NCBI GenBank assembly: GCA_943356465.1
Contig: CALREX010000004.1
Coordinates: forward strand, 112,448-176,447
Reading direction: 5' to 3'
DNA length: 64,000 nt
Origin: Candidatus Peribacteria bacterium
GTDB taxonomy: Bacteria; Patescibacteriota; Gracilibacteria; UBA1369; LOWO2-01-FULL-3
Positions 18-43,971 of the stretch are shown here, piece after piece. The notes under the pieces were generated by a model. The model had not been told where the DNA came from. It ran no database searches and saw nothing but the letters and a program-made list of their open reading frames with translations. The position numbers were made by a program, and so were the translations under genes. The stretch's first letter is position 1, and each line of letters opens with the position of its first letter.

Positions 18-1244
18 TTGATGAGATCAACATCAGAAATAGAAAAACAAATGCAAGATACAGCAGGAATTATTACTGCCTACATTTTCGAAATGGCCGC
101 AAAATCAAGCGATGGAAAACTTTCACCTGAAGCATTAGCGGAAATAAAATACAGCATAAATAAAAATGCAGTAAAAATGGCAGAGATGGCAATGAAGCAA
201 AAAGATGCACCGGAGCTTGTAGAAGCAATGAAATTCGTTCTCAAAATTGAAAAAATTGATAAGGTGAAAGTATTTGATACACTGTCAAAAATAATATTTG
301 GAAAATCTGATTTATCAGCTTATGCATGGACAGTTCTTTCATTTATGGATGAAAATTCACAGATTGAATTTGGCAAATTTTACATAGAAAAAAATAAATT
401 AAGTCCTGTAGATGCACAGAAATTTTTAGATACATGGAGTGTGCAGGGAAATATAAGCATTGAAACCATGAGAAAGATTCTTGCAAACTCAAAAATAGAC
501 ACAAAAGCATTTGAGCAAAAAGCTCAGGAATATGCCAGAAATTGGAAAGCAAAAAATGATTTTGTTGAGAAAGCAAAACAGATGGCTGAAGTATCTTATG
601 GTGCAACAAATCAAGCCACAGATATGATGACTCCGACAGGCGTTTTGACATTCATGGCAAATGTCTGGTCGGTCGGCACAATAGCGCTAAACGTAGGGAC
701 TACGGTGTTTTACGGAGGAAAGATAAATAATCCGGAATTTATAATAGGGTCACTTGCAGAAAACCCATGGTTCATCACCGGTATCGGCACATTGGCAGCA
801 ATAAAAGCTACAGAAAAGGGAGGTATTGGCTCTGCACTGAGATCAAAAGAGGAAGTGCAAAATCAGGAAGAAGCATCGGCTAAAAAAGAATTCAAATATT
901 TGGTCGCTGGAAATCTTGAACTTGAAGCATTTCTGAAATCAGGAAACACATACGAAGGATCGAGGAAATTCTTTGATTATTTGCAGTATGTTCGCAGAGA
1001 AAAAGGAAGTGAAGATATGCCATTTCCTGAAAAAGAGATGACAAAATCAGCATTTTTGAAATGGCTAAGCTCAAATTTTGCAAAAGCAAATTCAGCAGAA
1101 CAAGACAAGATTTTAATCGTAATGAAAGCACTGCAAAAAAACAAAATATCAGATAAAGAATTTTACAGACTTGCAGTCCCATTCGATAAATTGGCTATAG
1201 GAGGAATCGAAGCCGAAAAAAATTATCTTAAAGCACTCGCATAA
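18..1244 (+). CDS. hypothetical protein, possibly 5'-truncated by the window edge; first gene of a 4-gene block
   Basis: The frame is open back to the window edge, with no in-frame stop upstream of TTG18/ATG21. Stop TAA 1242-1244 abuts the ATG of the next gene. Two hydrophobic segments are present (GVLTFMANVWSVGTIALNVGTTVF, WFITGIGTLAAI). No family recognised. Confidence 0.6.
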   Translation: MMRSTSEIEKQMQDTAGIITAYIFEMAAKSSDGKLSPEALAEIKYSINKNAVKMAEMAMKQKDAPELVEAMKFVLKIEKIDKVKVFDTLSKIIFGKSDLSAYAWTVLSFMDENSQIEFGKFYIEKNKLSPVDAQKFLDTWSVQGNISIETMRKILANSKIDTKAFEQKAQEYARNWKAKNDFVEKAKQMAEVSYGATNQATDMMTPTGVLTFMANVWSVGTIALNVGTTVFYGGKINNPEFIIGSLAENPWFITGIGTLAAIKATEKGGIGSALRSKEEVQNQEEASAKKEFKYLVAGNLELEAFLKSGNTYEGSRKFFDYLQYVRREKGSEDMPFPEKEMTKSAFLKWLSSNFAKANSAEQDKILIVMKALQKNKISDKEFYRLAVPFDKLAIGGIEAEKNYLKALA

Positions 1245-3974
1245 ATGAAAAATAAAATACTACAAAAATCGATTATCACGCTGGTTATAGCATTTATATC
1301 CATAGTTTCATTTGGAGGGACAAATACATCTAAAACAGCATATGCAGTGGAACCTGCAAAAACAACAAAAGAACTTTGTGAAGGCCTAACCCCTGCAGGC
1401 ACATACAATCCGGATGGTTCGTGTTTTATTCCAAATGCAAAAGACTGTAGCACGCTCGGAGCGGATTATGAAGAAAAATCTCCGGCAGATGCAACAGGAA
1501 TAGTTTGTAAAAAATCAGCAGTCGGTTCAACCGCAAATGCAGAAAAGGAAAAAGTATTGAAAGAAAGGATGTATATAATTATTGAAATTCAACAATGGTT
1601 AAATACTGTTATTTGGCCTGTTCTTGTGATGATAGGGGATTTGATGAACAACAATATTCTTTTTGGGGCAGGCATGGACGAGAGACTTCGTGAAATATGG
1701 ATTCCGGTAAGGAATTTGATAAATCTGTTTTTTGTGCTGGCAATGGTTGCAATAGCAATCTACAACATTCTTGGAATCGGTGAGGACAACGATGCATATT
1801 CGATCAAACAAATTCTTCCAAAAATGATTATCGCAATAATCGCGGTAAATTTTTCATTCATCGGAATAAAAGTATTTCTGGACGGAATAAACGTGTTGAC
1901 CACATCTATTTTTGCACTACCGGATCAGGTAAAAGAAGGACTTGGAGACATAACTCAGCAAGAGGCAATGGTACAAAGATTTTGTCTTGGAACAATGGGC
2001 AAAACGATAGATAAGGTCGACATCACAGGCAATACAGAATCAGGACTGGATTTAGCTTCCTACAAAGTTGTTATCTTAAATTTTGCAGAAAAAAACACAT
2101 TTTTAATCCAACCAGAATATACGATTGAGCAATTAAAAGGAGATTTAGGATTATCAAATTTATCAGCAACAGAGTTAAACAAAATAACAAGTACGTATTT
2201 TAAATCAGAAGGACAATCAAAATTAGCAAAAGAATTTGTTGCAGCAGAAGAAAATCGCATCTGTACAAACGACGCAAAACTAACCCCTCGCGGAAAAGCA
2301 TTCCTTACAAAATACAACAGTTCAAATGCAGCGCTTGCAATGGCACTCAATATGTCGAAAATAGTTTTCTATCAGGAGATAGATATCACAACACTCACAG
2401 AATCGAATATTTCAAAATTATTCATAAACACAATATTTTCTGTAGCGATGTACTTGATATACGTCGTGTCATTCTTGGCACTTTTTATAGTACTTTTGGC
2501 TCGTCTTGTAGTTCTATGGCTCGGAGTCGTAGCCTCACCGGTTATAATCGTATCGATGGTATTGCCGGTATTTAAAGAAAAACTTGGATTTGGAGAACTT
2601 GTAGATAAATTCGTACAAAACGCAATAGCTCCGATCATGATAGCCCTTTCCATGACAGTTGGATGGATAATGCTTAGGGCAATACAAAATGTAAATATAT
2701 TAAGCAGTGATGCTGTAAAGATTACAAACGGAATTCCAGTAGCCGGACTAAACACGATTCAGGATTTGATAGTGGCATTGGGCACAGTAGGAGTCATCTG
2801 GATGGCTGTATCATCTGCTGCAAACAAATCAATCGCAGAACCTATCACCAAATCACTTTATGGAGCTTTGGGCCAGGCAGGCTCATTTGTTGGCAATATT
2901 GCATGGAAACATGCGCCTCTATTCCCAGTATCAATCCCTGGTCAACCTGATAAGATCATGGCAACACCTGAAATCCTTGGAAAAGTATTAGACAATGCGG
3001 AATATTCATATAAAAAGAAACAATTGGATAAAGCGGACATGGTATCTGAAGCTCTCGGCTTTAAAGAAAAAGGAGTAAAGCAATTTGACGACATTGTACA
3101 TGCAAAGAACACAAAAGAAGCTCTTGGCATAATGAGTAACCCAAACAATGAACGGGCTATAATAAACGGAAGCAAAGGAGAAATAGACGACAAGATCAAT
3201 GAGTTCAATAAAAGATATGGTGGTAAGTTTTTCAATGATCTTAATAATGGTGGACAGGAAAGTAGAAAGCTTAAAGATTTAATAGAAGCCTTAAATAAGG
3301 AGACTGATGAATCAAAGAAGAAAGATATCAGAGAGAAGATAGCCAAGCATCTAAAAACGTACGGTAATGAGATACAAAAAGAACAGGATGCAAGAGAAGC
3401 TGCAGAGGCGGGAACTTCACCTGCTGCAGGAACACCAGCAGCTGCACCACACGCCTTCACAGAACATGACAAGGTTGGAGGAGCGGATATTGGAGCGGCC
3501 AATGTCGCAAAAATGACAGATGCTACCGCAGCTTTAACAAAAGCATTACATGACAAAACTAAAGGAGAAGCAGACATAAAACCTCTACTTAAAGCCTTCG
3601 AAGTAAATGGTCATAAGCCTACAGCAGCAGAACTTAAGGCGTTCATAACAGATCCAGAATCAAAGAAAAGGCTTCAGGAGATATTCGGTGACGATGCAAA
3701 AATCAAGGCCGCAATCGATGCAGCAAAGACAGACAAAGTCGCTGGAGCACCGGAAAAACAATTCGCACAGGGAGGCGTTACCGCACAGCCTGGAACACAA
3801 GGCACAGCTCAATTACCTGGCACGCCTGCACAAACACAAACAGGAACATCAATTCCAGGTGCAGGAGTAGTTCAGTCAAACATAGCACGTGCAGGTGAAG
3901 AACGTAAGCAACCAAACGAACCGATAAAACCAGAAGATAAAAATCAGACTGGCACACAGACAGGAACGGTATAA
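1245..3974 (+). CDS. large polytopic membrane protein with signal-like N-terminus and long hydrophilic tail (function unknown; VirB6/TrbL-like topology only)
   Basis: 909-aa ORF. The N-terminal hydrophobic leader ends in AYA. A Cys-containing segment follows (CEGL..SCF..DCS..VCKK). There are two clusters of hydrophobic helices (roughly aa 115-215 and 390-530) separated by a soluble loop. The ~370-aa charged tail ends in A/G/T/Q/P low complexity. The ATG immediately follows the upstream stop. Confidence 0.75.
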   Translation: MKNKILQKSIITLVIAFISIVSFGGTNTSKTAYAVEPAKTTKELCEGLTPAGTYNPDGSCFIPNAKDCSTLGADYEEKSPADATGIVCKKSAVGSTANAEKEKVLKERMYIIIEIQQWLNTVIWPVLVMIGDLMNNNILFGAGMDERLREIWIPVRNLINLFFVLAMVAIAIYNILGIGEDNDAYSIKQILPKMIIAIIAVNFSFIGIKVFLDGINVLTTSIFALPDQVKEGLGDITQQEAMVQRFCLGTMGKTIDKVDITGNTESGLDLASYKVVILNFAEKNTFLIQPEYTIEQLKGDLGLSNLSATELNKITSTYFKSEGQSKLAKEFVAAEENRICTNDAKLTPRGKAFLTKYNSSNAALAMALNMSKIVFYQEIDITTLTESNISKLFINTIFSVAMYLIYVVSFLALFIVLLARLVVLWLGVVASPVIIVSMVLPVFKEKLGFGELVDKFVQNAIAPIMIALSMTVGWIMLRAIQNVNILSSDAVKITNGIPVAGLNTIQDLIVALGTVGVIWMAVSSAANKSIAEPITKSLYGALGQAGSFVGNIAWKHAPLFPVSIPGQPDKIMATPEILGKVLDNAEYSYKKKQLDKADMVSEALGFKEKGVKQFDDIVHAKNTKEALGIMSNPNNERAIINGSKGEIDDKINEFNKRYGGKFFNDLNNGGQESRKLKDLIEALNKETDESKKKDIREKIAKHLKTYGNEIQKEQDAREAAEAGTSPAAGTPAAAPHAFTEHDKVGGADIGAANVAKMTDATAALTKALHDKTKGEADIKPLLKAFEVNGHKPTAAELKAFITDPESKKRLQEIFGDDAKIKAAIDAAKTDKVAGAPEKQFAQGGVTAQPGTQGTAQLPGTPAQTQTGTSIPGAGVVQSNIARAGEERKQPNEPIKPEDKNQTGTQTGTV

Positions 3975-3984: not shown

Positions 3985-6900
3985 ATGAATACAAAGCAAG
4001 ATCCACAAGCAGGAAAAACACAAGAATCTCTAGAAAGGGCGGAGGAAACTCGTATTCTCGATGAGATAAAAACGGCTGATGGTAAATCAGCGGAATTTTC
4101 ACATTCGGCAAAAATTGCACAAAAACTTGAAAAAGGCGAGCTGGATCTTACTCGTGACGAAAGAATGAAACTTCGTGACACACTGAAAGACAGAAATAAA
4201 ATGAAGGAAAAACCATACGAGCACTTCATGGAAGCGCTTGCAGATGGCAAATTCCCAAAAAAAGGAAAACGTGCGATGAGATTTTTAGAAGCGATTGAAG
4301 AACCGGATGAAAAAGGAAAATCGTTAGAAAAACAAACATATGCAGGAAAAGAAGAAAGAGAATATGCTGCAGAGCTTTTGAAAGACCTTGCGAAAGCCGA
4401 AAATCCACCACTTTCAGAAAGATCTGAAATGGCATCGCTTGCAAAATTGGAAGAAATGAGACAAGCACAACAAGCCGAAAAGATGGAAACAGATAAAAAA
4501 GGTGAAGAAGAAACAGGAAAAGTCCGCGCAAAAGTTGAAAGCACGGCAAAAGTAGACGAAAAAGAATTGTGGAAAGTAGACCGTCCACCTGAAGGGCTTA
4601 TCGAAAATCTTGAAGCAATAGAGACGAAGATGTTTGCTCTGATGGATGAGTCGAATGCAGCACACAAAAAAGGTGAATCGACAGAAGAACTTGATGCTGA
4701 AATAGACAGATTGGAACTTGAAAGATTGCCATTTAGACAGCAATACATAAACTATTTGAGAAAAGCAGGAGAAAGATTTGATGCAATCCAAAGACTGGCA
4801 AGTCGTGCAGGAATGGATATGGAGCAAATTTCCAGACTTTTGATGTGGTCTATCGAACATGATGGATCAAAGGGTGCAAAAGTAGATGCAAAAACCGGAA
4901 AAGTCGAAAAAGCAAAAGAAACGATACAAATAAAAAGCATTTATTTTACTCAAGAAAAAGATGACAAGGGCCCCGAGTTTCCAGGAGAACTGAAAGTCGA
5001 ATATGTAAATGAACAAGGAAAAACAGAAACCGCAGGATACACAAATTTCCTGAGAATGTTGGACGCACTTGAAGTTCACAAAGATATAAAAACAATAGTC
5101 GATCTAAACAAAGAAATAGCTAAAAATACAGGATATGAAGGCATAAAAGCTGGACAGGTTTACAGAACAAAAGTCCTTGTAGACCTTACCGAAGGCGGAG
5201 AAAAAGTTTACGAAGAGGTGGAATTCAAAATTGAACAAGTAGATGAATCAGGCAAAGAACCACTGATAGTACTCGATCGCAATGTCACAAAAACACCGCT
5301 GGCATGGCTTTCTGACTCAGTTGATCCATCGCTTTATTTTAAAAGAACTCAAAAGGAATTTTCCGCTGGGGAATTCGCAAAACTCGTAAAACAACATGGA
5401 TATTCGGTACACGTGGCACCTGAAGAAATGCAAGCAGCCATGGATAGAATGGCAAAAGCAAGAAGAGAAAGAGGCATGGAAATGAACGAAAGAGTAGCTC
5501 AGAGCCTGACAGGAAAGCCTGCTTCAGAAGTAAGCAAAAAAAGATATGAAAGTACTTTTGCGGCACCTGCTTCAACAAGTGGTGCAGTAAAAATTCCAAA
5601 TATAGGAGAAAGTTCACCTGTGGATTTTTATGATGCCGCTGCGGGAGGGAAAAGAGTCTTAGACGCAAAACTTACTGTAAAACCAAATCCACAAAAACCT
5701 GGAGAAAATATATTCGAAATTTCATATGCAGATACAGCAGAAAATGCCGCAAATCTGACAAGTTTATCAGGAATTCCTTTAGAAATGAAACGTGCAATCG
5801 GTCCTACATTTTTACCTGAACCACGGATTATACGACGTGAATTTTCGCCTTCTGCATTTATGGAACTCGCAGACAAAGGCGCAGTTGCACATGGACATGA
5901 AGAACATGGTCACGTTGAAGATCACGCACCTCATGCAGAAGAACATCATGAGGAAGAGCATGCACATGAACAACACGAAGAACATGGAGAAGAAGAAGGA
6001 CATGAAATGGCAAAACAACCATTTTATAAAGAAGCTGTAGCATTCGAAGAGGCATACAAAACAGGACTTCCGGCACACGGAACAACACAATCTTACGTAA
6101 GAACAGTTTGGAACAATACAAGATTTTTAAGTTTGGATGATCTATGGAAAATGGGCAAGACTTGTTATGAATATTACGAAAGAAGGTTTGAACAAAGACA
6201 AAAAAACAGATATGGAATAGTCGGTAAAGAACTTCCATTCTTTGGTTCGGAAATGCAACAGATTTCTCAGGCATCAAACAATGAACAAACAAACCATTTC
6301 AAGGAAGCACTTGAGAAAAGAGGTATTATCGCAATCAGAGAAAGACTAAGAATCACTTCAAATAAAGAAGAATTTAAAGCTTGTATCTTGGTACTCGTAG
6401 AAAAAGGAATGATGATGTGGCATGACGTGGCACTCTGGAAAAACATGAATAAATTCGTGAAACCAGGGAAAGAAGTACCGGTGCCTGAAAATGGCAACCC
6501 TTACACACATATCAGTATTTCAGACAATAGAACGGGATATGATTTTGTAGAGCCTGCCATAGACTCAATTTGGGGAGACGGTTATTTTGGAGAATGGTAT
6601 TCAGAAAACAAAAATCACTATGATAGCCATGCAAAAGGCTTCTACACTGAGGGTAAAGAGTTGGAAGGAGTCGACGGAGGACATGCCAGAAAACTATCTC
6701 AACTTCTACATCATCATAAAGAAGGAAATTTCGTTGACCCTATGGAATATGAAGGTTTGTTGTTGCATGCTATCGAAGCGGGAAAAGCAGGAATGGAAGA
6801 TAAAATTTATTACCTTGTAGAAGGAGTCGCGGCAAAAAACAAAAAAGGGGAAACAATTTTGACGCTTGATAGAATGGCTCACGTAAATGGAGAAATGCTT

Positions 6901-7806
6901 GGAAGATTTCCACTTTTGGAATACATGTGTGCAAATGCACCACGTCCGCCTGATGGACTGGAAACTTCAAGATTTACGTTTGAAGATTATGAAAGATGGG
7001 CCAAATGGTTTGATGCCGGACACGACCATCCGGGTCATCCAAATACTGAACCTACAAAAGCAGTGAACGATTTTCTATGGAAATATGCACTTCCAAGTGA
7101 TAACACTCAAAATCGTATCAATAAAGTGGCAAGATCTATTGAAAACGTAGACCATGATGATCTATACGCATACATTCCTCCTGCTACAGATGACGTACTT
7201 ACGGATATATGTAAAACAAACGTTGGAGGCAGAAAAGGAGCGACAATCGAAGGATATGCGAATGTATTCCCTGGATTTAGCCAATATATGAAATCGTTAA
7301 GCCAACATGGATATAAAGATAAACTTGCTGAAGCGGTGAAATCTTATGTCAGATTTGAAGGAATCATGACAAACAAATTTGAGAAGCAAGTAGATTCCGC
7401 ACATGACGCATTTCAGAGAATGGGAGATAAGACATTAAACAGTTCTACAATCTGTTCGGATGAACCGCCATCATTATTTATTGGTGAAATGAATCAGGTA
7501 ATAAAACAAATTGTAGCAGCTTATGGAGATTCAGAACTTAGCTCTATTCTAAGCGACATACAGGATCTTCGAGTAGGGGATATGAGTAATCCGGACGAGA
7601 AGAGAAAGCAAGATAGAAAAAATTATGCTTATCATGAATTCGGTAAAGTTTTCAGTAGAGTTACGGAATCAGATGGACAGGCAAAAATGCTGCAAATAAT
7701 GCAGAATGCAAGCTTAACAGGAATGGGATACATCCCCGCCGCGGAAAAAGCTCGTCGTAGAGCAGAACGACACGGCGAAGCTCCGGCAGGTGGTGGTCAT
7801 CATTAA
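3985..7806 (+). CDS. large hypothetical soluble protein (1273 aa) with charged N-terminal third and an internal His/Glu tract
   Basis: Uninterrupted 3.8-kb ORF starting 10 nt after the upstream stop. The N-terminal ~250 aa are K/E/A-rich and coiled-coil-like. A His/Glu tract lies at nt 5890-6006. The C-terminus ends in GGGHH. No P-loop or other catalytic motif recognised. Confidence 0.75.
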   Translation: MNTKQDPQAGKTQESLERAEETRILDEIKTADGKSAEFSHSAKIAQKLEKGELDLTRDERMKLRDTLKDRNKMKEKPYEHFMEALADGKFPKKGKRAMRFLEAIEEPDEKGKSLEKQTYAGKEEREYAAELLKDLAKAENPPLSERSEMASLAKLEEMRQAQQAEKMETDKKGEEETGKVRAKVESTAKVDEKELWKVDRPPEGLIENLEAIETKMFALMDESNAAHKKGESTEELDAEIDRLELERLPFRQQYINYLRKAGERFDAIQRLASRAGMDMEQISRLLMWSIEHDGSKGAKVDAKTGKVEKAKETIQIKSIYFTQEKDDKGPEFPGELKVEYVNEQGKTETAGYTNFLRMLDALEVHKDIKTIVDLNKEIAKNTGYEGIKAGQVYRTKVLVDLTEGGEKVYEEVEFKIEQVDESGKEPLIVLDRNVTKTPLAWLSDSVDPSLYFKRTQKEFSAGEFAKLVKQHGYSVHVAPEEMQAAMDRMAKARRERGMEMNERVAQSLTGKPASEVSKKRYESTFAAPASTSGAVKIPNIGESSPVDFYDAAAGGKRVLDAKLTVKPNPQKPGENIFEISYADTAENAANLTSLSGIPLEMKRAIGPTFLPEPRIIRREFSPSAFMELADKGAVAHGHEEHGHVEDHAPHAEEHHEEEHAHEQHEEHGEEEGHEMAKQPFYKEAVAFEEAYKTGLPAHGTTQSYVRTVWNNTRFLSLDDLWKMGKTCYEYYERRFEQRQKNRYGIVGKELPFFGSEMQQISQASNNEQTNHFKEALEKRGIIAIRERLRITSNKEEFKACILVLVEKGMMMWHDVALWKNMNKFVKPGKEVPVPENGNPYTHISISDNRTGYDFVEPAIDSIWGDGYFGEWYSENKNHYDSHAKGFYTEGKELEGVDGGHARKLSQLLHHHKEGNFVDPMEYEGLLLHAIEAGKAGMEDKIYYLVEGVAAKNKKGETILTLDRMAHVNGEMLGRFPLLEYMCANAPRPPDGLETSRFTFEDYERWAKWFDAGHDHPGHPNTEPTKAVNDFLWKYALPSDNTQNRINKVARSIENVDHDDLYAYIPPATDDVLTDICKTNVGGRKGATIEGYANVFPGFSQYMKSLSQHGYKDKLAEAVKSYVRFEGIMTNKFEKQVDSAHDAFQRMGDKTLNSSTICSDEPPSLFIGEMNQVIKQIVAAYGDSELSSILSDIQDLRVGDMSNPDEKRKQDRKNYAYHEFGKVFSRVTESDGQAKMLQIMQNASLTGMGYIPAAEKARRRAERHGEAPAGGGHH

Positions 7807-7890: not shown

Positions 7891-10419
7891 ATGGAAATGG
7901 ATCAAACCAAATTTCATTCAAATTACAGTGTCCAAACAGAAGGTGACGATTTAAGGCCTAACTTTCAGGAGATTACTGCTTTGGCTAGTGATATAGCGGC
8001 GGATTTAATAGGGGCGCTGCGCATAGCAGGCAGAAAATTTGTACTTAGAACAGTGGATACAGTAGATAGATTTGCCGATAAAAAAGAAGCACCCCATACT
8101 GTGACGGGCAGCATTGGCCAAATGGCAGCACAAGAAGCAAGACGTGCCATAGAATTGGCAAAAGAGTTAAAAATGATTGATAAAATAAATATAACAAAAC
8201 TGCCAAGATTACTGGACGATGATGAAAAAGATTTTCAATTAAAAGCAGATACAGTAGACATATTGGACTCAAGAATGGGTATAATTTCTCCATTTTATGA
8301 TCTTATAGTTTTTATTTCAAATAGAGGGTTTGACCAAAGAGTTGATCCAGCAAGACTTACAAAATTTTTTGAATCAGAAAAAATATTGAGACTACTTTTA
8401 AATCAAGTATTTAGCGAAGAAAATTCCAGATACAGAGGGCCAAATGTATTAGCAGTGGCAGGCTCAATGATAGGGGCTGTATCGGAAAAATTAAGATCAA
8501 TAGCAAACAAAACAAACAAGATACAAATAGATGACAAAACAAAGGAAGATCTTGATAGAAAACTCAATAAATTTAAAGAAAAATATAAACCTGAGAGCAA
8601 ATATACAGTCTCAGCATTTGTAGGAAAGCTAAAAGCACTATATCAGGACTATGATTTAGTTCCATGGCTTGAGGAACAAATACCATTTTTTATCGAAATG
8701 CTAAGGGGATATAAGATTGAAACAGCGGAAGATGGAAGTGAGTTAAAAAAAGTCACAGGCATTCAACACATAAAAAATATGGTGCATGGCGCATATGAAG
8801 ATAAAACAAAAACTCAGAATTTACATGAAGAATTTATTAGAACTCACATGGGTCGTTTTTTCATTACCATAAGACAGGCGGAAATTATGCGGACAAGAGT
8901 GAATACAAAAGAAATACCATGTTTCTTGATTGATACACAAGAATTAACAAAATTTTTCAGAAAATTAAAAAAGGTAAAAACACGTGAAATAGGGGAAGGA
9001 CAAATGATAGATATGATCATCAGAATCTGTCTTGAAGAAACACAAAAACATGGAAACACTCAAAACGGAATAACCATCATGGTACACAACGATACGACTG
9101 CAGAAACATTCACAATAAAAGACACAAAAGATATTCAAGGACAAATAACAGGAATAATAGATGAAGCGATAAATGTAAGTTCTCCTCACATAAACACACA
9201 AAATTTATTAGTAAATCCAGAGGGCAATCCTGAACGTATAATAAGTGAACATGAAAGAATATTTAATCAAAACGGAGAAATAAACCAAAGAGCATACAAT
9301 GCAATGCTGAGAAGTATATTTGAGCACAAAGAAGAAGATCAAGAAAAACCAGAAAGAATGGAGGTTATCAGATCACGTATCGGTGAACTATTTAATGAAG
9401 TAAACGAAATACTTAAAGATATTTTTGGTGAAACAGAAATAACAATACCAAAAGAAATAGAAGATATTCTTGGGGTAAATGATTATTCAGAACTTATAAA
9501 TGTATCGCTAAAAGAAAAAGATAAAAGGAAGAGATATGCTGCAAGGCTCAAGATAGAGCTTACTTGGCTTACATATAGAGCTTCCCACATGCCAAGGTTT
9601 GTTTTTAAAGACAGCGATGCCCAAAAAATACAACTAAAAATGGAAGCGACACAGGAAGATATACAAATTGATGATGACTGCGAAGTAAAAATAATAAAAT
9701 TTGTAGATTGCAAAGATAAAGATCCACAAATAATACAAGATAAAGTAGACGTTGATGAGTTGGATTATGATGACGGAGCAATAAGAATTGGTGAACTAAA
9801 ACTAATTCCAGCACAATTTGCAGGGCAGGATTGTTATTTATTACATAATGGTAATGACAAAACTCCTAAGGGATATATAAATCTCAAATCTTTAAGGAGC
9901 TTGGTAATAAACAGAATACGGGCAAGAAGTACGACTCTTGAAGAAATTTCAGACATGGCAAGAATGACATTTGTTGTAAAAGGCATGGAGCAACTAAAAG
10001 ATCTAAAGGAAGCCATTAGTACAACACATGCAAGTCTTGGAAGATTAATAGAAGTTGAAGACACATATACAGAAACTCAGGAAAATGGTGTGCAATTTAC
10101 AGGTGAAAATGAAAGCAAGTCAAAAGCATATAGAACATTGAAATATGTCTCATACGTACCAATTTTCAACGACGAAAAACTATATATAGTACAGTTTGAA
10201 ATGAGAGTAATCCTGCTGGAAGATGCAATCAAAGAAAAAAGTGAATATCATGAAATAGGACATAAAGCATATGAATCAAGGCGTGGTCTTGCATGCATCC
10301 CTATCATTGCGCCAAAGAGTATATTCCCTGAATTATACGAAGAAGAAAAAGATCCGGATGATCTCTCAGATGAAGTAAACATAAGAGTAAAAAGGGCTCT
10401 TACTAGTACGGCTTCTTAA
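7891..10419 (+). CDS. hypothetical 842-aa protein with C-terminal RelA/SpoT-like (RSH-fold) nucleotidyltransferase-like domain
   Basis: Long ORF, last of the co-directional block. The C-terminal ~110 aa follow the spacing of RSH synthetase motifs: R.R.RS..LEEISDMARMTFVV, AYRTLKYV, YIVQFEMRV, and HEIGHKAYESRR. Confidence 0.7.
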   Translation: MEMDQTKFHSNYSVQTEGDDLRPNFQEITALASDIAADLIGALRIAGRKFVLRTVDTVDRFADKKEAPHTVTGSIGQMAAQEARRAIELAKELKMIDKINITKLPRLLDDDEKDFQLKADTVDILDSRMGIISPFYDLIVFISNRGFDQRVDPARLTKFFESEKILRLLLNQVFSEENSRYRGPNVLAVAGSMIGAVSEKLRSIANKTNKIQIDDKTKEDLDRKLNKFKEKYKPESKYTVSAFVGKLKALYQDYDLVPWLEEQIPFFIEMLRGYKIETAEDGSELKKVTGIQHIKNMVHGAYEDKTKTQNLHEEFIRTHMGRFFITIRQAEIMRTRVNTKEIPCFLIDTQELTKFFRKLKKVKTREIGEGQMIDMIIRICLEETQKHGNTQNGITIMVHNDTTAETFTIKDTKDIQGQITGIIDEAINVSSPHINTQNLLVNPEGNPERIISEHERIFNQNGEINQRAYNAMLRSIFEHKEEDQEKPERMEVIRSRIGELFNEVNEILKDIFGETEITIPKEIEDILGVNDYSELINVSLKEKDKRKRYAARLKIELTWLTYRASHMPRFVFKDSDAQKIQLKMEATQEDIQIDDDCEVKIIKFVDCKDKDPQIIQDKVDVDELDYDDGAIRIGELKLIPAQFAGQDCYLLHNGNDKTPKGYINLKSLRSLVINRIRARSTTLEEISDMARMTFVVKGMEQLKDLKEAISTTHASLGRLIEVEDTYTETQENGVQFTGENESKSKAYRTLKYVSYVPIFNDEKLYIVQFEMRVILLEDAIKEKSEYHEIGHKAYESRRGLACIPIIAPKSIFPELYEEEKDPDDLSDEVNIRVKRALTSTAS
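9900..10290 (+). other. RelA/SpoT-like nucleotidyltransferase-like domain region within the 842-aa protein
   Basis: Pattern match by eye to the PF04607-type layout. A basic R/K-S segment is followed by D-x-x-R on a beta strand (DMARMTFVV, D at nt 9952). Then comes an aromatic-R-x-L (YRTL, cf GYRSLH), then E-x-R on a strand (FEMRV, cf EIQIRT), then H...H.AY (cf H..YK). Remote and unverified. Confidence 0.4.
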
Positions 10420-12154
10420 GAGTTGTAAGTTCCAAGAATTCTTTAAGAGTCATAGCTTCCTGTTTTTTTGTAGCATAATCTCTGACTGTCAAATTTTTTG
10501 CCTCAACCTCTTTTTCACCGACTACAATCATATAAGGAACTTTGCTCATTTCCGCATTTCTGATTTTTTTGCCAAGAGTTTCATTTGAGTCATCAACTTC
10601 ACATCGAAGCCCAGCATCAAAAAACTTTTTGTTCACTTCGTTTGCATAGTCATTGAATTTTTCCGAAACCGGCAGAAGAACTACTTGCACAGGCGCAAGC
10701 CACGCAGGGAAAGCTCCAGCATAATGCTCTGTAAGTATCGCAATAAATCTTTCAAGAGAGCCAAGAAGTGCACGATGTACTACTACAGGAGTATGAGATT
10801 TTCCGTCACTTCCTTCAAATTCCAATTGAAATCTCAGAGGCATTTGGAAATCAACCTGCACAGTTGCACATTGCCATTCACGTTTCAAGGAATCCTTGAT
10901 TCTGAAATCAATTTTTGGTCCATAAAAAGCACCATCACCGGCATTTATAGTGAAAGGGATTTTTGCCTTATTCAAAGCCTTTTCCAAAGCTTTTTCCGCA
11001 CTTGCCCATTGTTCTTCTGTTCCCATGGATTTTTCAGGCCTCGTTGAAAGACAAACTTCATAAGTAAAATCAAAAATATCTTCATAAATATATTTCGCAA
11101 AATCTATACAATTCAAAATCTCTTCTTCAAGCTGTTCATGCGCAACAAATATATGAGAATCATCCATGCAGAATTTTCTTACTCTAGTCATTCCACCCAA
11201 AGCTCCACGCACCTCATTCCTGTGCAGCATCGCAAAATCCGCTATTCTAAGAGGTAAATCACGATAACTCTTCATGTCCATTTTATAAATCAACATATGA
11301 GAAGGACAGTTCATAGGCTTTAGCGAAGCCTCTTTATCATCCATATTTACCTGAAACATATTCTCTTTATAGTGCTCCCAATGCCCGCTTTGTTCCCATA
11401 AAGCCTTATCATAAACAAGCGGAGTCACAACTTCTTTATAATTTCTCTTTCTATACTCGCTTCTCAAAAATGTCAAAAGCTCATTGAAAATAATAGTTCC
11501 TTTTGGAAGGAAGAAAACAGACCCTGGAGAAATATCGTGGAACTGAAAAAGTCCAAGTGCAGTTCCAAGCCTTCTATGGTCACGCTTTTTGGCTTCCTCA
11601 AGCTGTTTTAAGTGTTCGTCCAATTCTTCTTTTGTATTCCATGCTGTTCCATAAATTCTCTGAAGCATCGGATTTTTCTCATCACCTTTCCAATAAGCTC
11701 CTGCAATTTTCATCAGTTTCACAGCCCCGATTTCACCTGTACGATCAAGATGATGCCCGCGACACAAATCCACGAACATCACTTTACCGTCATTAGGCAT
11801 CACATTTTCATAAAAAGAAATTGTCTCGCCTGTTTCCTTCAGTCCTTCGACAAGCTCAATCTTGTATTTTTGGCCTGTAGCCTGTAAAAATTCGATAGCT
11901 TTATCGGCAGGCTCCTCTCTTCTGACAAATTTTTGATCCTGCTTAATAATATTTTTCATATCTTTTTCAAGAATAACAAGATCTTCCGGAATCAGAGTTC
12001 TTGGCAAATCAAAATCATAATAAAAACCATTTTCAATAGTAGGTCCTATTGCAAGTTTGGCATCAGGAAACATTCGCAGTACAGCTTGAGCCAAAACATG
12101 CGCGCACGAATGTCTCATAGCCTCGATGTCGACTTTTTTCTCAATTTTAGACAT
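10403..12154 (-). CDS. thrS: threonyl-tRNA synthetase (short form lacking N-terminal TGS domain)
   Basis: HSCAHVLAQAV editing-domain motif near the N-terminus, class II core motifs (HRRLG, FHDISPG, RVRKFCMDDSHIF), and a C-terminal anticodon-binding domain. 583 aa. The 3' end overlaps the convergent upstream gene by 17 nt. Confidence 0.95.
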   Translation of the reverse strand: MSKIEKKVDIEAMRHSCAHVLAQAVLRMFPDAKLAIGPTIENGFYYDFDLPRTLIPEDLVILEKDMKNIIKQDQKFVRREEPADKAIEFLQATGQKYKIELVEGLKETGETISFYENVMPNDGKVMFVDLCRGHHLDRTGEIGAVKLMKIAGAYWKGDEKNPMLQRIYGTAWNTKEELDEHLKQLEEAKKRDHRRLGTALGLFQFHDISPGSVFFLPKGTIIFNELLTFLRSEYRKRNYKEVVTPLVYDKALWEQSGHWEHYKENMFQVNMDDKEASLKPMNCPSHMLIYKMDMKSYRDLPLRIADFAMLHRNEVRGALGGMTRVRKFCMDDSHIFVAHEQLEEEILNCIDFAKYIYEDIFDFTYEVCLSTRPEKSMGTEEQWASAEKALEKALNKAKIPFTINAGDGAFYGPKIDFRIKDSLKREWQCATVQVDFQMPLRFQLEFEGSDGKSHTPVVVHRALLGSLERFIAILTEHYAGAFPAWLAPVQVVLLPVSEKFNDYANEVNKKFFDAGLRCEVDDSNETLGKKIRNAEMSKVPYMIVVGEKEVEAKNLTVRDYATKKQEAMTLKEFLELTTLKKPY

Positions 12155-18042: not shown

Positions 18043-19194
18043 TTATTCATTTGCAGGACATTGCTTGCTGTTTACCAATTTTGTGCAGCCAAGAAGGTTT
18101 TCTAGTGGGGCAAGAGTCTCTATAAGAGTTTTATTTAGATTAGAAAGACTTTGTACAAATATGCCTACGCTGCTATCGCTAACTTCCTTATATTTTACAT
18201 AAAAATTTGAAGACATCTCTTCTCGTAGTTGAACACTGTCATAAGCTTTATCGGTCTGTTCTATAGCATTTGTAGCTTGTTCAGGAGTTACACCGCCACC
18301 GCCTTTTGGTGCGGATTTAGCAAGCCTATCTATTATTCTTGTAGCACCTTCTTTTGGAGGTAGATTGTTTATATTCAGAGCAACAATTCCGGAAAGATAT
18401 TGAGATAAACTTTGATTTGTAGCAGATTCTACTATTTTTTCAGCACCTTGACCGGCAGTTTTTTCTGCAGTTTTTGCGGCAGGAGCAACACCAAATAACG
18501 TGCTTATAAATTCATCCCATTTTTTTGAAACAGCTTCCCATGATGAATTTTCACATATTATATAAGATTTTTTTCTAGTCTGATATTTAGTCTCAAATTT
18601 TGCGAACATAACATCAAAATCTTTATCGGACATTAAATCATTTGCGGTATATTTTTCTTTCATTTCGGAATAAAGCTTTTCCTTAGGATAAAACAATTCT
18701 TCGGGATTTTGGGCCATCCTTGTGCTCAAAATGTCATAAGGCAAATTTATAGCGACTTCTTTGTTTACAATATTTCTAACATAATAAAGCTCTGCTCCAA
18801 GCTCATTATAGCCTTTTTTTAAACTTGGAAGTTTCGAAGTATTACATGTAAGAAAAGCATCACGTATATAAGTTCTCATCTTATCTCTTTGGCTTATCAT
18901 TCCTGCAATATCAGAGGCCTGGCATTTGTTTCTATATAAAACATCATTCCACATTTCTACTATCCCACCAGCAATTCCATCGGCAAAAATTGAAGCTCTC
19001 AGAAAAGCTGTAAAATCCAAATTGCCTTTCGCTAAACATTTTGCAGGACCCAAATTTCCTCCTTCAGTGGGCTGTAGATCCTTTTTATCCTCTGCGTATA
19101 CATAACTGCCACTACATAGCATGTTAAGCATAAGAACGCATAATACTGCGAAATTCCTTATTGTATGTCCGGCTTTTGTCCCCATTCTTGGCAT
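18043..19194 (-). CDS. secreted hypothetical protein (383 aa), last gene of the pilus/giant-protein block
   Basis: Signal-peptide-like N-terminus (IRNFAVLCVLMLNMLCSGSYVYA). Helical, charged body. C-terminus has CTKLVNSKQCPANE. Its start overlaps the upstream gene by 37 nt. Confidence 0.7.
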   Translation of the reverse strand: MPRMGTKAGHTIRNFAVLCVLMLNMLCSGSYVYAEDKKDLQPTEGGNLGPAKCLAKGNLDFTAFLRASIFADGIAGGIVEMWNDVLYRNKCQASDIAGMISQRDKMRTYIRDAFLTCNTSKLPSLKKGYNELGAELYYVRNIVNKEVAINLPYDILSTRMAQNPEELFYPKEKLYSEMKEKYTANDLMSDKDFDVMFAKFETKYQTRKKSYIICENSSWEAVSKKWDEFISTLFGVAPAAKTAEKTAGQGAEKIVESATNQSLSQYLSGIVALNINNLPPKEGATRIIDRLAKSAPKGGGGVTPEQATNAIEQTDKAYDSVQLREEMSSNFYVKYKEVSDSSVGIFVQSLSNLNKTLIETLAPLENLLGCTKLVNSKQCPANE

Positions 19195-21074
19195 ACGTTA
19201 TTGGTTTTTTCTAATAAATCTTTATAATTTGCGAATGTTTGACTCATGAAATTCAATTCTTTTATAAGTGTTTGTGCATAAAGTGCTGTATTCGTAGCCG
19301 GTTCAGAAGTTTCTATATTGCTAAGTTCTTTTTTCGCCGCTGCAGTAGATATCGCCAATTCTTTTTGTACATCACTGAAAATCTTATCCTGTGTGCTGGC
19401 GGCGGGAGCATTTTCTATCTGAAATTTTGTAACACTATCTACTTTTAAAGAACTGAACAAAAGAGGTTGATACCTGTCTATAAATTTTTTCCAACTTTCA
19501 AAAATATTTTTTCCCAAGATTATGTCACCGCCTGAAGGCGTTGGAATAGGGGCTTTTATAACTACAAATTTCATATCAAAAAGAGATCCCATGGCATTTT
19601 TACATTTTGCACTTTCAAGCATATTTCCTGTGGATTTATTTGGAATGAGAGAATGATCCAAAGTTTTCTTCAATATATCATTTATTTTTTTGACTTCACA
19701 AAGTACACAACTCTTACCTGGATAGTAGGTGGACAAAGTCTTTTTGATTAGCTTTATAGTGACACAAACAGATGCTTTAGCGGAAAAAGCTTTTGATGCA
19801 AATCCTACTCCTGCACCTGTCAAAGTGCTTGAAGAGTTATTTAGCAGGGAATTACCGACATCTCCAAGACTTGTAAATCCTGCATCTCCAAAAGTAGTGC
19901 CAAGACCTCCATAAGAGTCACCACCATCTGCAACATTCGGATCTTCCGGACACCAAGCATCAGCCCATTTATCTTTTGGAGCGGGTGATAGCGTTTCTTG
20001 CGTAGTATTTTGTGTAGGAACATTTAGATCTTTTGACTTCTCTCCAGGCGTACCTGCACCTTCGTTTCCATCACCTAACGATTTATCTTCACTTCCAGAT
20101 GGATTACCATTTGCATTGCCTGAGTCGACAGGATTCCCGGATGCCTGATCGGGAGCCTTGTTTGAAACTTCTTTTTCAAAATCATCCAAAGCGGAAGAAA
20201 TGTCATCTTTAACAGCACATAAATCTTTTTTTAGAACATCAACAGTTATCTTTTTATCACCAATAGGCGTAGTCGCAGTACCTGCTACTCCGACTGAGTC
20301 AGTCTTCTGTCCATCTGTGCCTCCACCTCCGGCATTTCCAATACCTCCTGTTCCACCATTCCCAGTTGAACCTCCACTACCATTAGCATTTTTATCCTTA
20401 AGATCTATTTTATAACCGGAAACAAAATCAGGGCCACCGGAAACATAATTTTCATTTTTATAATCATCTGCAGTAGGCAAATAAGGAGATTTCAAACCAT
20501 CAACATAAGGCTTACCTATAGTGTTTTGCACAACATCAATAAACAAAACTTCTTCAATTTTAGAAAGATCATAAATCAAATCAAATCCTGAATCGGAAAG
20601 ATCATTATTTGAAAAAATTTCACTTGGACGAATCGAAGCATCAACTTCTTGTTGCAGGTCATAAGATTCTTTCAAAATATCATAAGATTCTTTTACATTT
20701 TGCATTACAGCAAGAGCTCTCTCCTGAGTCATGCTTGGAGATTTATTGTAAGAGGTGTTAAGAATAGGCAGGATACTACCACCAACAACACTCTTGGCCT
20801 CCATTGTCGTAAGACCGTATTTTTTTGCTACATCCGTCAAAGCATTTTTTCCCGGAACTACAAAACGTTTTACATAAATCAAATTATACAAATCCTTTCC
20901 TTTTGATGAAGGTCCAAAAACATCTTTCCAGTCAAAGAAATTTCCAAAAGCTGTAATCTCATTCCACCAATTCAGTTCACCATAGGCAATATTTACCTGA
21001 TAAATCTTTAGACCTATCATTGAGATTATTAGTCCGGAAGCAATTCCTATAATGATTGGTAATATTTTTTTCAT
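19158..21074 (-). CDS. membrane-anchored hypothetical protein (638 aa) with Gly/Asn/Ser low-complexity linker
   Basis: N-terminal TM (ILPIIIGIASGLIISMIGL), a G-rich tract (GSGGSTGNGGTGGIGNAGGGG), a Cys-containing C-terminal domain, and a Cys 11 residues from the end. 2-nt gap to the upstream gene. Confidence 0.75.
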   Translation of the reverse strand: MKKILPIIIGIASGLIISMIGLKIYQVNIAYGELNWWNEITAFGNFFDWKDVFGPSSKGKDLYNLIYVKRFVVPGKNALTDVAKKYGLTTMEAKSVVGGSILPILNTSYNKSPSMTQERALAVMQNVKESYDILKESYDLQQEVDASIRPSEIFSNNDLSDSGFDLIYDLSKIEEVLFIDVVQNTIGKPYVDGLKSPYLPTADDYKNENYVSGGPDFVSGYKIDLKDKNANGSGGSTGNGGTGGIGNAGGGGTDGQKTDSVGVAGTATTPIGDKKITVDVLKKDLCAVKDDISSALDDFEKEVSNKAPDQASGNPVDSGNANGNPSGSEDKSLGDGNEGAGTPGEKSKDLNVPTQNTTQETLSPAPKDKWADAWCPEDPNVADGGDSYGGLGTTFGDAGFTSLGDVGNSLLNNSSSTLTGAGVGFASKAFSAKASVCVTIKLIKKTLSTYYPGKSCVLCEVKKINDILKKTLDHSLIPNKSTGNMLESAKCKNAMGSLFDMKFVVIKAPIPTPSGGDIILGKNIFESWKKFIDRYQPLLFSSLKVDSVTKFQIENAPAASTQDKIFSDVQKELAISTAAAKKELSNIETSEPATNTALYAQTLIKELNFMSQTFANYKDLLEKTNNVCQEWGQKPDIQ

Positions 21075-22349: not shown

Positions 22350-25300
22350 TTATTTTACAACATCAATTGAATTACTCTTAGAGAAAATATAATTATCATC
22401 TTTATTAGAGATAATTGTGAAAAATCTATCTGTCGGTAAAATCATACTGCTGTTTGAAATAGTAGATTTACAAGGGCAGGTATTGCATTCTCCAGGCACT
22501 ACATATATACCCGGAACAGATTCTTTCTTGGTAAATTCAGTCGTAACTTGTGATTTATCATCGCTTGGATCAAATATGTCAGTGCCATTTTTTAGCTCAG
22601 TTGCATCATCCGTGCCGCCGCCATCAGTATCTTTTGCTATCGGTTTATTTTCAAAACAGTTATAAACATCAAGAACTCTGCCGGCAAGAATAAACAAATC
22701 TCCACGTGTCATAGCCTTTTCAGGTGTCTTTGCCTCATCGGTGGTAACAATGAAATTGTTTTTTATAGCTTTATTCTGAGACAGGTATTTAGTAAGATTC
22801 TGTGCTGCTTGCATGAAATTTACATACCAAGGAATACCAATTCGAACTTTATCAACATTGATTACATTTTCCATTTGAAGAGCACCAAGAATAATTTTCA
22901 CAGCTTCAGCCAAATTTATTGTATTTTCAGGTTTGAAAGGATGTAAATTCTTCGCGTCACTTTCTCCACGATATCCATCTATAAGAGCCCTCAACGCCGC
23001 TTCTTTAATATATGGATAGAACCAATCCAGAGGCTGTTTGTATTGAATATCTGAGAATCCACCATGTGCTTCGTCAGCAGAATAAGGCTTGTATGCTTCA
23101 GGTCTTGGTTCTATACAAAGCATTTTCAAAAGAATTTTTACAAACTGACTTCTGTTCACCAAATCATCAGGTTTAAGATAAACACCATTCTCGGATTTTA
23201 TACCGTCTATAATATCTTTTTCATAAAGATCATTCGCTATTTTCTTTAGATCCGAAGATAAATTACCAAAATCCGCGAATGGAGAAACAAATGCATTAGC
23301 AGATTTTTCAAGTGTATTAGCATTTGAAGTCTTGGCAAAGGGAACATCTTTTGCTCCAACAATTTTTGCAGTAATAGTATTGTTTACATGTACTTCAGCC
23401 ACAACTTTTTCATCAACAATAAGATTCATAACAAGTGGATCTTTTGTGTAATCATTGGTTTTTTTCATTGCCTTAAGCCTATTATCCAGCACTGTGATAT
23501 TTCCGGAAGGTTCGATTGCGGCAAAAAGAATGTTATTTTTGCTGTCAACGATAGTTGCTCCACCTGGATTAAATTTATTATCAACAGGCAAAATTTTCAC
23601 ATCAATTCCATCGTTAGGATTCAAATCAATAACATTTGTTCCATATAAATTTGAAGAATTTATGTCAGTATTGGCATCTCCGACAATATAAACTGTGGCT
23701 TCAGTGTATCCATTTTTATCAATGATTGTTAGGCTTGTAGAAGCCATATTTGATTTATTTGCAGTGTTTATCTTTACTTCGTATCCGTCAGCAAGCTCAC
23801 CTATACTTCCGGTTTTTGGATTTATTTTTGCAATAATTTTCCCATTTTCATCTTCAATCAAAATCATGTCATCCAAAGAAAAATCTTTAATATTATAGGA
23901 TCCATCATCATCAGTTTTATATTTTCCATCTTTATCAGCAGAAGATGTTTTGATTTTTTCAAGTTTAGGAACAAGAGTAAGATTGCCATCCACAGATCTA
24001 TATACATAACGTTCTCTCATAAGACTGAAAGGAAACTTTGCCAAAGATGGATCAACTTTTCCCGAGGCTATAGGTGTTCTTTCCAGAGGTTTATCCAAAG
24101 AGATTTTTGGAGCAAAAACATTTATTGTTATCTTTTCAGATGACGAATTTCCTGAAGCATCAACAACATTTAAAATAGCATAATGCATACCGATATCCCC
24201 TTCATTTACAAAAGGTCCGATATTGAATTTTGGGTTACTCTTGTCATTTGTTGGATTGCCGTCACCGTCTTCATCGATAGATAGATTTACATCACTCCAT
24301 ATTAATTTCGGAAACTGAGTGACATTTTTCTTGTCACTTTCAAAAGGCAGCATCTCGATCGAATATTCTGTAACTTTCCCATTTGCATCAAAAGAATTCT
24401 CTGCATCAAGAACAAAACTTTGAAATATAGGGACATTGAAAGTCGTTTGAGATATCGCAGGCAAAGGTGGTTCTTTATCGGAACATAAAGGTGCCTCATA
24501 CATCGGATAGTAAGAGATGAAGTTCACTCCATTTTTCAAAATATAATCCGAAACAGCACTATTTGAAGATGAAACATATATGTCACCTTTCTTTGATTTA
24601 GGTGTTTCTTTATAATTTAATTTTAGATAAACCTCTCCTCCCATCGATAAAACAATATCTTTGTCGCTGTCGCCATCGCTATCAATGAAAAGAGTATTCA
24701 CAAAACTGCCAAGCTCCGAAGTATAATTCAAAACACTTTCATTTTTTCCATCAGCTACTATATAAAATCCTTTTGGCGCACCGCCGGAATCTGCAGACAC
24801 AGGATCGATTTTTGAGGCATCACTTGGCTCCAAAGCTATCATCTTTTCTTTCGTTTCATCAGTGAAAAGAGAACCTTTTATCTGTTGCTTATGGTCTACA
24901 GATAAATCTATTTTTTGTAAGGTATTATCAACAAATAGATTTTTTTTGCTTTCATCCTCAGCAATAAACTTCATAAATTCATCGTAGTTGTTTATCTTCG
25001 ACAAGACATCATTATTTGATTGATTCAAATCGTTTGCATAAGCCAACATGCTGTTTCTTATGGCATACATTTTTTCCATTTCAGGATAATCTGTAAATGA
25101 ATCAATATTTAAATCTTTTATATCTGAAAGTTTCTTATTAAAAATAGGATTATCTTTTTTCAAAACAGATTCTGTCGCAGTTAGATAAAATTTCTCAGGA
25201 TAATTTTTATCCAAATCTGCAGAAGAGACATATTTATTAATTTCATCACTGAAAATTTTAAGTTCATTATTAAGTTGAACAAAAACTTCAGGAATGGCCG

Positions 25301-43880: not shown

Positions 43881-43896
43881 CTGGAAATTTTACTAC

Positions 43897-43922
43897 GGGT
43901 CATTTATACTTAGACCCTTTTT
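43897..43922 (+). terminator. intrinsic terminator after recJ
   Basis: GGGTC-(11 nt)-GACCC followed by TTTTT. Confidence 0.55.
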
Positions 43923-43942
43923 AATGTTCCACAATGAAGGTA

Positions 43943-43971
43943 TTGACATACGCAGAAAAATGTTTTAGAAT
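43943..43971 (+). promoter_or_regulatory. near-consensus sigma70-type promoter for the nrnA-like gene
   Basis: TTGACA (43943-43948), a 17-bp spacer, then TAGAAT (43966-43971). It lies 25 nt upstream of the ATG at 43996. Confidence 0.5.

Follow-up and report, generated by a model that had tools for sequence, protein, structure and literature searches.

A RelA/SpoT-homologue synthetase domain with a preserved catalytic set at the C-terminus of a large protein encoded in a conserved gene cluster of Peregrinibacteria and Gracilibacteria

RelA/SpoT homologue (RSH) enzymes run the stringent response, and are also found as toxins of toxin-antitoxin modules, of secretion systems and in phage defence. 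Here we describe an RSH-type domain at the end of an 842-aa protein encoded in a 64,000-nucleotide (nt) stretch of DNA from a Candidatus Peribacteria bacterium (GenBank assembly GCA_943356465.1, contig CALREX010000004.1, positions 112,448 to 176,447 of the forward strand). This whole stretch is called the window below, and all coordinates are window positions. The domain is homologous to the RSH synthetases and preserves their catalytic set, and its gene is part of a membrane-associated cluster that is inherited vertically and restricted to its lineage. With a probability of roughly 0.5, we propose that the protein is the cell's own cytoplasmic synthetase of an alarmone-type, (p)ppGpp/(p)ppApp-like nucleotide signal, specific to Peregrinibacteria/Gracilibacteria and gated by its N-terminal region and by membrane-associated proteins encoded upstream. 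The enzyme superfamily is already known, while the subfamily appears to be undescribed in the literature that we searched, which did not cover most subscription journals.

Detection of the link between the window protein and the RelA_SpoT family depended on the use of a 57-sequence family, because a single sequence was insufficient. A word-indexed search gave five relatives at 50–59% identity, among which the proposed catalytic Asp and Glu were invariant; the two with a named source were both a 'hypothetical protein' of Candidatus Peregrinibacteria. Two close homologues (P0002 and P0003) showed a sub-threshold RelA_SpoT match of 12.7–14.1 bits exactly over the predicted region, and a 6-sequence profile gave no match in the PDB. 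An exhaustive profile search of 1.84 billion representatives yielded 62 proteins (clusters) at E ≤ 1e-3, nearly all of them 750–990 aa long and matched end to end, with the domain at the C-terminus. The set of C-terminal domains used throughout comprises 57 of these 62 relatives (20–69% identity to the window protein), and the full-length alignment comprises 53 homologues (17–57% identity). Pfam RelA_SpoT was matched at E ≤ 1 by 27 of the 57 C-terminal domains, with a best E of 1.8e-7, and no other Pfam family was matched by more than one of them. Three family members even exceeded the curated cut-off of 27 bits for RelA_SpoT (PF04607), at 28.8, 27.9 and 31.9 bits, and these same three match the C-terminal profile of the window protein at E 1e-18 to 5e-39. 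When the family profile was compared with all PDB sequences, Bacillus subtilis RelP (YwaC) came out on top (E=1.4e-5), followed by B. subtilis RelQ (YjbM), Staphylococcus aureus RelP, RelSeq and S. aureus Rel. Likewise, hhalign placed the family on residues 200–420 of Escherichia coli RelA (E=9e-5), and all five synthetase motifs came out in register. Every named member of the family is annotated as 'hypothetical protein', and most members carry no Pfam or NCBIfam call. Other searches added little: the window protein had no match in NCBIfam and nothing in PADLOC beyond a marginal Cas5d match (E=0.015), the C-terminal alignment, used in a word-indexed protein search, brought up one fragment only, and a GTDB scan found just 3 loci, its patterns being too specific.

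The same conclusion was reached from a structure model. AlphaFold2 modelled residues 624–842 on the 57-sequence alignment with a predicted local distance difference test (pLDDT) score of 87.7 and a predicted TM-score (pTM) of 0.82. The core of the model has the topology beta1-alpha-beta2-alpha-beta3-beta4-beta5-alpha-alpha, that is, the five-stranded mixed sheet with flanking helices of the RSH synthetase fold. In a Foldseek comparison with the PDB, RelP, RelQ and Rel structures took all of the first 40 places (lowest E 6.4e-7, probability 1.0), and Pol-beta-type transferases such as TdT ranked only after these 40 RSH matches. TM-scores to RelP and RelQ were 0.4–0.5, the best local superposition being 2.9 Å over 125 columns. 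Among predicted viral structures (BFVD), phage 'RelA/SpoT family' proteins lead the matches. FaRel2, CapRel and Tas1 were absent both from the sequence-profile matches listed and from the best 50 fold matches listed. A first-pass annotation of this DNA, made from the letters and their translations, had suggested a possible RelA/SpoT-type fold at the end of the protein, to be judged by profile and structural comparison; both kinds of match were thus obtained (Pfam, PDB profile, hhalign and Foldseek).

The predicted catalytic residues are the best conserved part of the protein. The corresponding segments are:

9886 to 9921, plus strand: predicted phosphate-binding motif K666-S-L-R-S670-L-V-I-N674-R-I-R677, aligned to RVKSFESIVNKLMR of RelP
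9952 to 9972, plus strand: strand beta2, D688-M-A-R691-M-T693-F, with D688 as predicted Mg2+ ligand
10108 to 10140, plus strand: predicted acceptor (G-loop) segment N740-x-x-K-S-x-x-Y747-R-T-L, aligned to NPKPNGYQSIH of RelA
10198 to 10206, plus strand: E770-M-R772 on strand beta5, aligned to E-I-Q of EIQIRT
10261 to 10284, plus strand: H791-K-A-Y794-E-S-R-R798, aligned to H-W-K-Y-K of RelA

Translation of positions 9886–10290 gives KSLRSLVINRIRARSTTLEEISDMARMTFVV ... AYRTLKYV ... YIVQFEMRV ... HEIGHKAYESRR, so the motif strings, their order and their spacing are as first reported, and the Asp that had been placed at nt 9952 is D688 (codon 9952–9954; Glu770 occupies 10198–10200 and His791 10261–10263). 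The basic segment that the annotation assigned to ATP binding was recognised in part: of its 'R.R.RS' only R677 belongs to the motif, and the homologous motif begins at K666, nt 9886, 14 nt upstream of the reported start. In the alignments with RelP and E. coli RelA, K666 and S670 correspond to the Lys and Ser of R-x-K-x-x-x-S; in FaRel2 the triphosphate motif consists of R64, K66, S70, K74 and R77 (R-x-K-x-x-x-S-x-x-x-K-x-x-R). D688 aligns with the Mg2+-binding Asp (RelP D107, RelSeq D264, FaRel2 D90), Y747 with RelSeq Y308, E770 with the catalytic Glu (RelP E174, RelSeq E323) and H791 with the His of H-x-x-Y-K. In RelP, RelSeq and FaRel2 these positions have assigned roles in binding of phosphate and Mg2+ and in stacking of the acceptor base (PMC7983052, PMC11782079), the last being the role of the G-loop Tyr, Y308 in RelSeq (PMC7983052).

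Conservation follows these assignments closely. Across the ~850 columns of the 53 full-length homologues, only K666, D688, E770 and H791 are invariant. The Asp and the Glu of FEMRV, whose conservation had been proposed as a check on the prediction, are indeed unchanged in 57/57 C-terminal domains. Within the phosphate motif, K666 is kept in 57/57, S670 in 50/57 and R677 in 35/57; the predicted base-stacking residue Y747 is Tyr in 52/57 and Phe in 3/57; and in the H-x-x-Y-K helix, H791 is found in 57/57, Y794 in 49/57 and R798 in 50/57, the final Lys being Glu in most members. We read the invariant Lys/Asp/Glu/His pattern as the product of purifying selection on catalysis, and therefore infer that the C-terminal domain is an active enzyme. 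By homology, a nucleoside triphosphate and Mg2+ would be bound through K666, S670, R677 and D688, and the acceptor, its base stacked on Y747, would receive the beta,gamma-pyrophosphate at the 3'-OH of its ribose; E770 would complete the metal and catalytic centre, and H791 would support the site. Activity would be gated by the ~620-aa helical N-terminal region, together with membrane-associated proteins from the same operon.

The architecture of the protein sets it apart from the known RSH enzymes. Its parts are:

7891 to 10419, plus strand: gene for the 842-aa protein, stop codon included; last gene of the cluster
7891 to 9660, plus strand: N-terminal ~590 aa, mostly alpha-helical with small beta insertions, without a known domain
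9796 to 9867, plus strand: beta-hairpin 'LIPAxFxGxxCxLL', residues 636–659 (strands E15-20 and E23-28 of the model), preceding the catalytic core
9868 to 10290, plus strand: core RSH synthetase (pyrophosphokinase) fold, residues ~660–800, defined by profile, hhalign, model and Foldseek
10291 to 10416, plus strand: C-terminal extension with two extra strands and the family-specific motif I-F-P-E-x-Y (P808 conserved in 56/57)

The folded C-terminal domain spans approximately residues 636–835 (nt 9796–10395), and the last ~8 residues are disordered in the model. It is thus larger than first assumed, and what precedes it is ~620–660 aa rather than the ~680 aa of the earlier estimate. The hairpin at residues 636–659, in which L638 is conserved in 48/57 and C648 in 43/57 domains, has no counterpart in the canonical small alarmone synthetases (SAS) aligned to the domain. 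No recurrent Pfam family was found in the N-terminal ~620 aa across the 53 homologues, and an AlphaFold2 model of residues 1–645 (pLDDT 71.7), which is mostly helical, gave only helical-repeat noise against the PDB (best E=0.07, probability 0.15). Weak secondary HMM matches had raised the idea of a degenerate second copy of the domain in this region, which we rejected when hhalign gave a probability below 2% for every N-terminal segment. We presume the N-terminal region to be a regulatory or partner-binding part.

The best profile and structural matches, RelP (YwaC/SAS2) and RelQ (YjbM/SAS1) of Firmicutes, share with the window domain the beta-alpha core, the Lys/Ser phosphate motif and the HxxY helix, and likewise have the Mg-binding Asp on strand beta2, the Glu on strand beta5 and, ahead of beta4, the stacking Tyr. 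RelP and RelQ are homotetramers. They are single-domain proteins of ~210–230 aa, whereas the window domain ends an 842-aa protein, unlike any stand-alone synthetase of ~200–250 aa; it is only ~15% identical to them and has the extra N-terminal hairpin and C-terminal extension, and two Arg residues, those of R-x-K and D-x-x-G-x-R, are missing from it, as is the Gln of E-I-Q. The long RSH enzymes Rel, RelA and SpoT are alike in being multidomain proteins of similar length with one synthetase (SYNTH) domain, and the five motifs align with those of E. coli RelA. However, their SYNTH domain lies at residues ~200–400 instead of at the C-terminus, and they carry HD, TGS, helical, zinc-finger and RRM/ACT domains that were not detected in the window protein, whose N-terminal part has no detectable relative. 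Indeed, Pfam searches found no HD, TGS or other such regulatory domain in the window protein or its 53 homologues, and with an N-terminal model that matches no fold, the claim that such a fusion represents a new context holds. By architecture the protein is neither a long RSH, nor a SAS, nor a toxic SAS (toxSAS).

The gene stands in a cluster whose members in the window are co-directional and tightly packed, abutting at 1244/1245 and separated by 10 nt at 3974/3985 and by 84 nt at 7806/7891. The upstream members are:

18 to 1244, plus strand: 3' part of a gene for a ~525-aa soluble protein, aligning to residues 117–525 of the homologue at locus L003 and cut by the window start
1245 to 3974, plus strand: gene for a 909-aa protein with a signal-peptide-like N-terminal segment and ~6 hydrophobic segments
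3985 to 7806, plus strand: gene for a 1273-aa soluble protein with an acidic/His-rich linker at nt 5893–6006

The 909-aa protein looks like a polytopic membrane protein. At its 3' end, the gene for the 842-aa protein overlaps by 17 nt (10403–10419) with a convergent open reading frame (ORF) at 10403–12154 on the minus strand, identified as thrS by its threonyl-tRNA-synthetase Pfam domains. Wherever the flank is on the contig, relatives of the RSH-like gene lie downstream of rpsF (with ssb or rpsR) and the cluster, and/or beside a convergent thrS. The same gene order was found at six further distinct places, which is everywhere that the upstream region is on the contig; cluster homologues are present at L003, L007, L009, L010, L011, L013 and L015, and L012 repeats L011 and is not counted. 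This order begins with rpsF and then ssb or rpsR (L003, L009, L013), which flank the cluster, followed by a ~170–185-aa protein with one transmembrane segment (in L010 a 79-aa ORF without one), a ~510–555-aa soluble protein, sometimes an extra ~400–460-aa protein, a ~615–910-aa polytopic membrane protein with a signal-peptide-like N-terminus, a ~1030–1410-aa soluble protein and the RSH-like protein. Downstream, the convergent thrS is kept in L001, L003, L009, L014 and L015; in L011 a PrsW gene takes its place, and in L010 and L013 the contig stops short of the next gene. This placement holds in genomes whose RSH-like protein is only ~20–30% identical to that of the window. The one exception is a 4.4-kb contig with an M20 peptidase gene upstream of the RSH-like gene.

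The upstream operon is restricted to Peregrinibacteria, Gracilibacteria and other Patescibacteria, one metagenome-assembled genome with the cluster being labelled Gracilibacteria, and the relatives of the neighbouring proteins are exclusively lineage-specific hypothetical proteins. No reproducible Pfam, NCBIfam, PDB, plasmid or phage relative was found for these neighbours. A precomputed 'faint' match to TrbL_3 (VirB6/TrbL-like) in the membrane-protein homologue at L013 (4987–6834) was not reproduced by hmmscan at E ≤ 10 with seven homologues. Nothing in the whole cluster is better conserved than the last ~600 aa of the 1273-aa protein (41–48% identity, compared with 22–29% for the RSH-like protein). 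Just before this C-terminal part lies the linker, residues 637–674 (5893–6006, plus strand), whose sequence GHEEHGHVEDHAPHAEEHHEEEHAHEQHEEHGEEEGHE is acidic and histidine-rich, and the C-terminal part itself has an invariant D-H-D-D motif at residues 1056–1059; this may be a region that binds metal.

Several features of this setting speak for an enzyme that acts in the cell that makes it. We favour the cell-autonomous reading because the gene has a conserved, core-like position, because immunity or antitoxin genes and mobile or defence signatures are lacking, and because the domain is closest to RelP, RelQ and Rel. Small antitoxin- or immunity-like ORFs were absent beside the RSH-like gene at the loci compared, and PADLOC, plasmid and phage searches returned no match supporting a mobile or defence context. 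A canonical Rel or SpoT was sought within the window: tblastn with E. coli RelA and a scan of all window ORFs with the family-profile HMM found none but the 842-aa protein, and ten further large window ORFs contained neither an RSH nor an HD domain.

Other observations weigh against this reading. Much of the donor-base pocket is altered. The Arg two residues before the K666 position is not conserved (G/D/N/S/R); position 674, Lys in RelP and in 46/57 family members, is Asn in the window protein; in D-x-x-G-x-R the canonical Gly is replaced by R691 (Arg in 50/57) and the canonical Arg by T693 (Thr in 48/57); and the Gln of E-I-Q is Arg in 45/57, making E-I-R-x-x-L the family consensus. In FaRel2 the adenine of ATP is held by R64, G93, R95 and Q147 (PMC11782079); the equivalent family positions are variable, Arg (50/57), Thr (48/57) and Arg (45/57), so the clamp is not retained, in a mapping that rests on the motif register of the alignments rather than on a ligand-bound structure. 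With these pocket residues replaced, ATP is not guaranteed as the donor, and given the change of the adenine clamp throughout the family, the enzyme may use another donor, or make another product, than in the classical ATP to (p)ppGpp/(p)ppApp reaction. Furthermore, the window protein by itself, whole or as its C-terminal 242 aa, gave no RelA_SpoT match at E ≤ 10 and no meaningful Pfam match, and a PDB sequence search with it alone gave no match. A hydrolase (HD) partner was found neither in the protein nor in the checked parts of the window. The sequence is present in three DNA runs from lake-water metagenomes; the search for RNA data holding it yielded none, only these DNA runs. Lastly, the RSH-like gene diverges fastest in the cluster (22–29% identity, against 38–48% for its two large neighbours, in L009–L011), a pattern at least as compatible with an effector or sensor as with a housekeeping enzyme, although the four predicted catalytic residues are invariant despite this divergence.

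An unlikely but serious alternative would make the protein a delivered effector, that is, an exported or injected alarmone-synthetase toxin like Tas1/Apk1, with the N-terminal region as delivery or recognition module and the upstream membrane proteins as a delivery machine, specific to the Candidate Phyla Radiation (CPR), that acts on a host bacterium. The bacteria of this CPR branch are regarded as epibionts or predators, which counts in its favour, as does the position of the RSH-like protein as the fastest-evolving product of the cluster. The arrangement is also familiar: exported alarmone synthetases (EAS; Tas1/Apk1, SaEAS, and LXG-, MuF- and XopAD-fused EAS) combine a large N-terminal non-catalytic part, with secretion domains, with a C-terminal SYNTH domain (PMC12691689). 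Membrane-protein genes are encoded alongside both them and the window protein; here a signal-peptide-bearing polytopic membrane protein and a protein with one transmembrane segment are always in the cluster. Unlike these exported enzymes, however, the 842-aa protein has no hydrophobic N-terminus, signal peptide or transmembrane segment, LXG, PAAR/Rhs, MuF, XopAD and DUF4157 are absent from the 53 homologues, there is no adjoining small immunity-like gene, and its gene occupies a conserved, core-like site. In none of the 62 relatives does a different toxin take the place of the C-terminal domain, so the module is not polymorphic. Finally, the cluster contains no VirB4-type ATPase and no P-loop conserved across its proteins, Walker-A-like matches being confined to the homologue L009_1107, and the TrbL_3 hint was not borne out. 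A novel targeting mode is still conceivable for the window protein. A related and equally doubtful idea is that the five genes as a whole (for a 1-TM protein, a ~525-aa protein, a ~900-aa polytopic membrane protein, a ~1300-aa protein and the ~840-aa RSH-like protein) encode a hitherto unrecognised membrane machine that is specific to the Peregrinibacteria/Gracilibacteria lineage and whose output would be the RSH-like enzyme. This enzyme would either enter the host cell as an alarmone-synthetase effector, delivered through an apparatus of a new kind, or turn a membrane or host-contact signal into a nucleotide messenger.

Improbable in our view is a translation-targeting toxSAS, or a fused toxin-antitoxin or defence protein like CapRel, in which the N-terminal region would serve in cis as the antitoxin, or else as a sensor of phage. 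The proteins of this group (FaRel, FaRel2, PhRel, CapRel-SJ46) belong to the same enzyme superfamily; the RSH fold with an intact catalytic set and stacking Tyr would suit such a toxin, and the large non-catalytic part of a single polypeptide could autoinhibit it in cis, as in CapRel (PMC11782079, PMC9712102). FaRel2 targets tRNA-Gly and tRNA-Thr (bioRxiv 10.1101/2024.07.05.602228), and the convergent neighbour here is thrS, a link that is only suggestive. On the other hand, CapRel-type proteins have an N-terminal toxSYNTH followed by a C-terminal pZFD antitoxin domain, so the domain order is reversed in the window protein, which is also 2–4 times larger. Unlike this group, moreover, it has no antitoxin gene, no PADLOC match and no defence-island or prophage context; its core-like chromosomal position is kept across very diverged genomes, unlike that of defence islands; and it was housekeeping SAS and Rel, not FaRel2, CapRel or Tas1, that led the listed profile matches and the 50 listed fold matches. 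The toxSAS-like shading of the first-pass annotation consequently found no support in the context, given the lack of a small antitoxin neighbour and of mobile or defence signatures and the conserved chromosomal position.

We give slightly less credence to a catalytically dead pseudoenzyme of RSH fold, kept as a nucleotide-binding or structural module. Inactive domains do exist in RelA and SpoT, several canonical donor-site residues are replaced (including Lys by Asn at 674 in the window protein), and the window protein is sub-threshold against Pfam. Yet the only invariant positions among the ~850 columns are precisely four predicted catalytic or phosphate-binding residues, and the substitutions, which extend through the family, are conserved in their turn (R691, T693, R772), suggesting that the pocket was remodelled and did not decay. 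This also bears on the earlier remark that EMRV replaces EIQIRT: the substitution is real, but it is not a one-off degeneration. As for chance resemblance of motifs or another Pol-beta-type nucleotidyltransferase, single-sequence searches were empty and TM-scores to RelP/RelQ reach only 0.4–0.5, but four independent methods converge on RSH at E 1e-4 to 1e-7 and TdT appears only after 40 RSH matches, which makes this explanation highly implausible and led us to reject chance resemblance.

Elsewhere in the window, three further sets of genes were recorded. A giant 3915-aa ORF (22350–34097, minus strand), in which an FG-GAP-like repeat is the only Pfam match at E ≤ 1e-4, adjoins a type II/IV secretion ATPase gene (T2SSE, 36140–37540, minus strand); its product may be a surface protein or an adhesin associated with pili. 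The second set is a pair of neighbouring DHH/DHHA1 phosphoesterase genes (42219–45399, plus strand), which encode a RecJ-like protein with an OB domain (553 aa) and a 467-aa protein without one. The latter could be a nanoRNase or pAp-type phosphodiesterase, and is of relevance here only as a conceivable nucleotide-degrading activity. Two ORFs of 383 and 638 aa (18043–21074, minus strand) have no Pfam matches, and ORFs of the same size (379–383 aa, and 627 aa where complete) occupy the corresponding place, downstream of uvrA and an HTH_17 gene, in the related loci L001, L002 and L003.

The architecture, the remodelled donor pocket, the cluster and the restriction to one branch of the CPR all look new. 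With this family, the RSH superfamily comes to include the CPR, in the form of a new architecture and an altered donor pocket, and a conserved operon of large 'dark-matter' proteins, apparently a lineage trait, gains its first functional handle. Should it make an alarmone, as we favour, the enzyme would reveal how stress or contact with the host is signalled in these reduced, host-dependent bacteria; a delivered enzyme would indicate a new weapon between bacteria, along with a new route of delivery.

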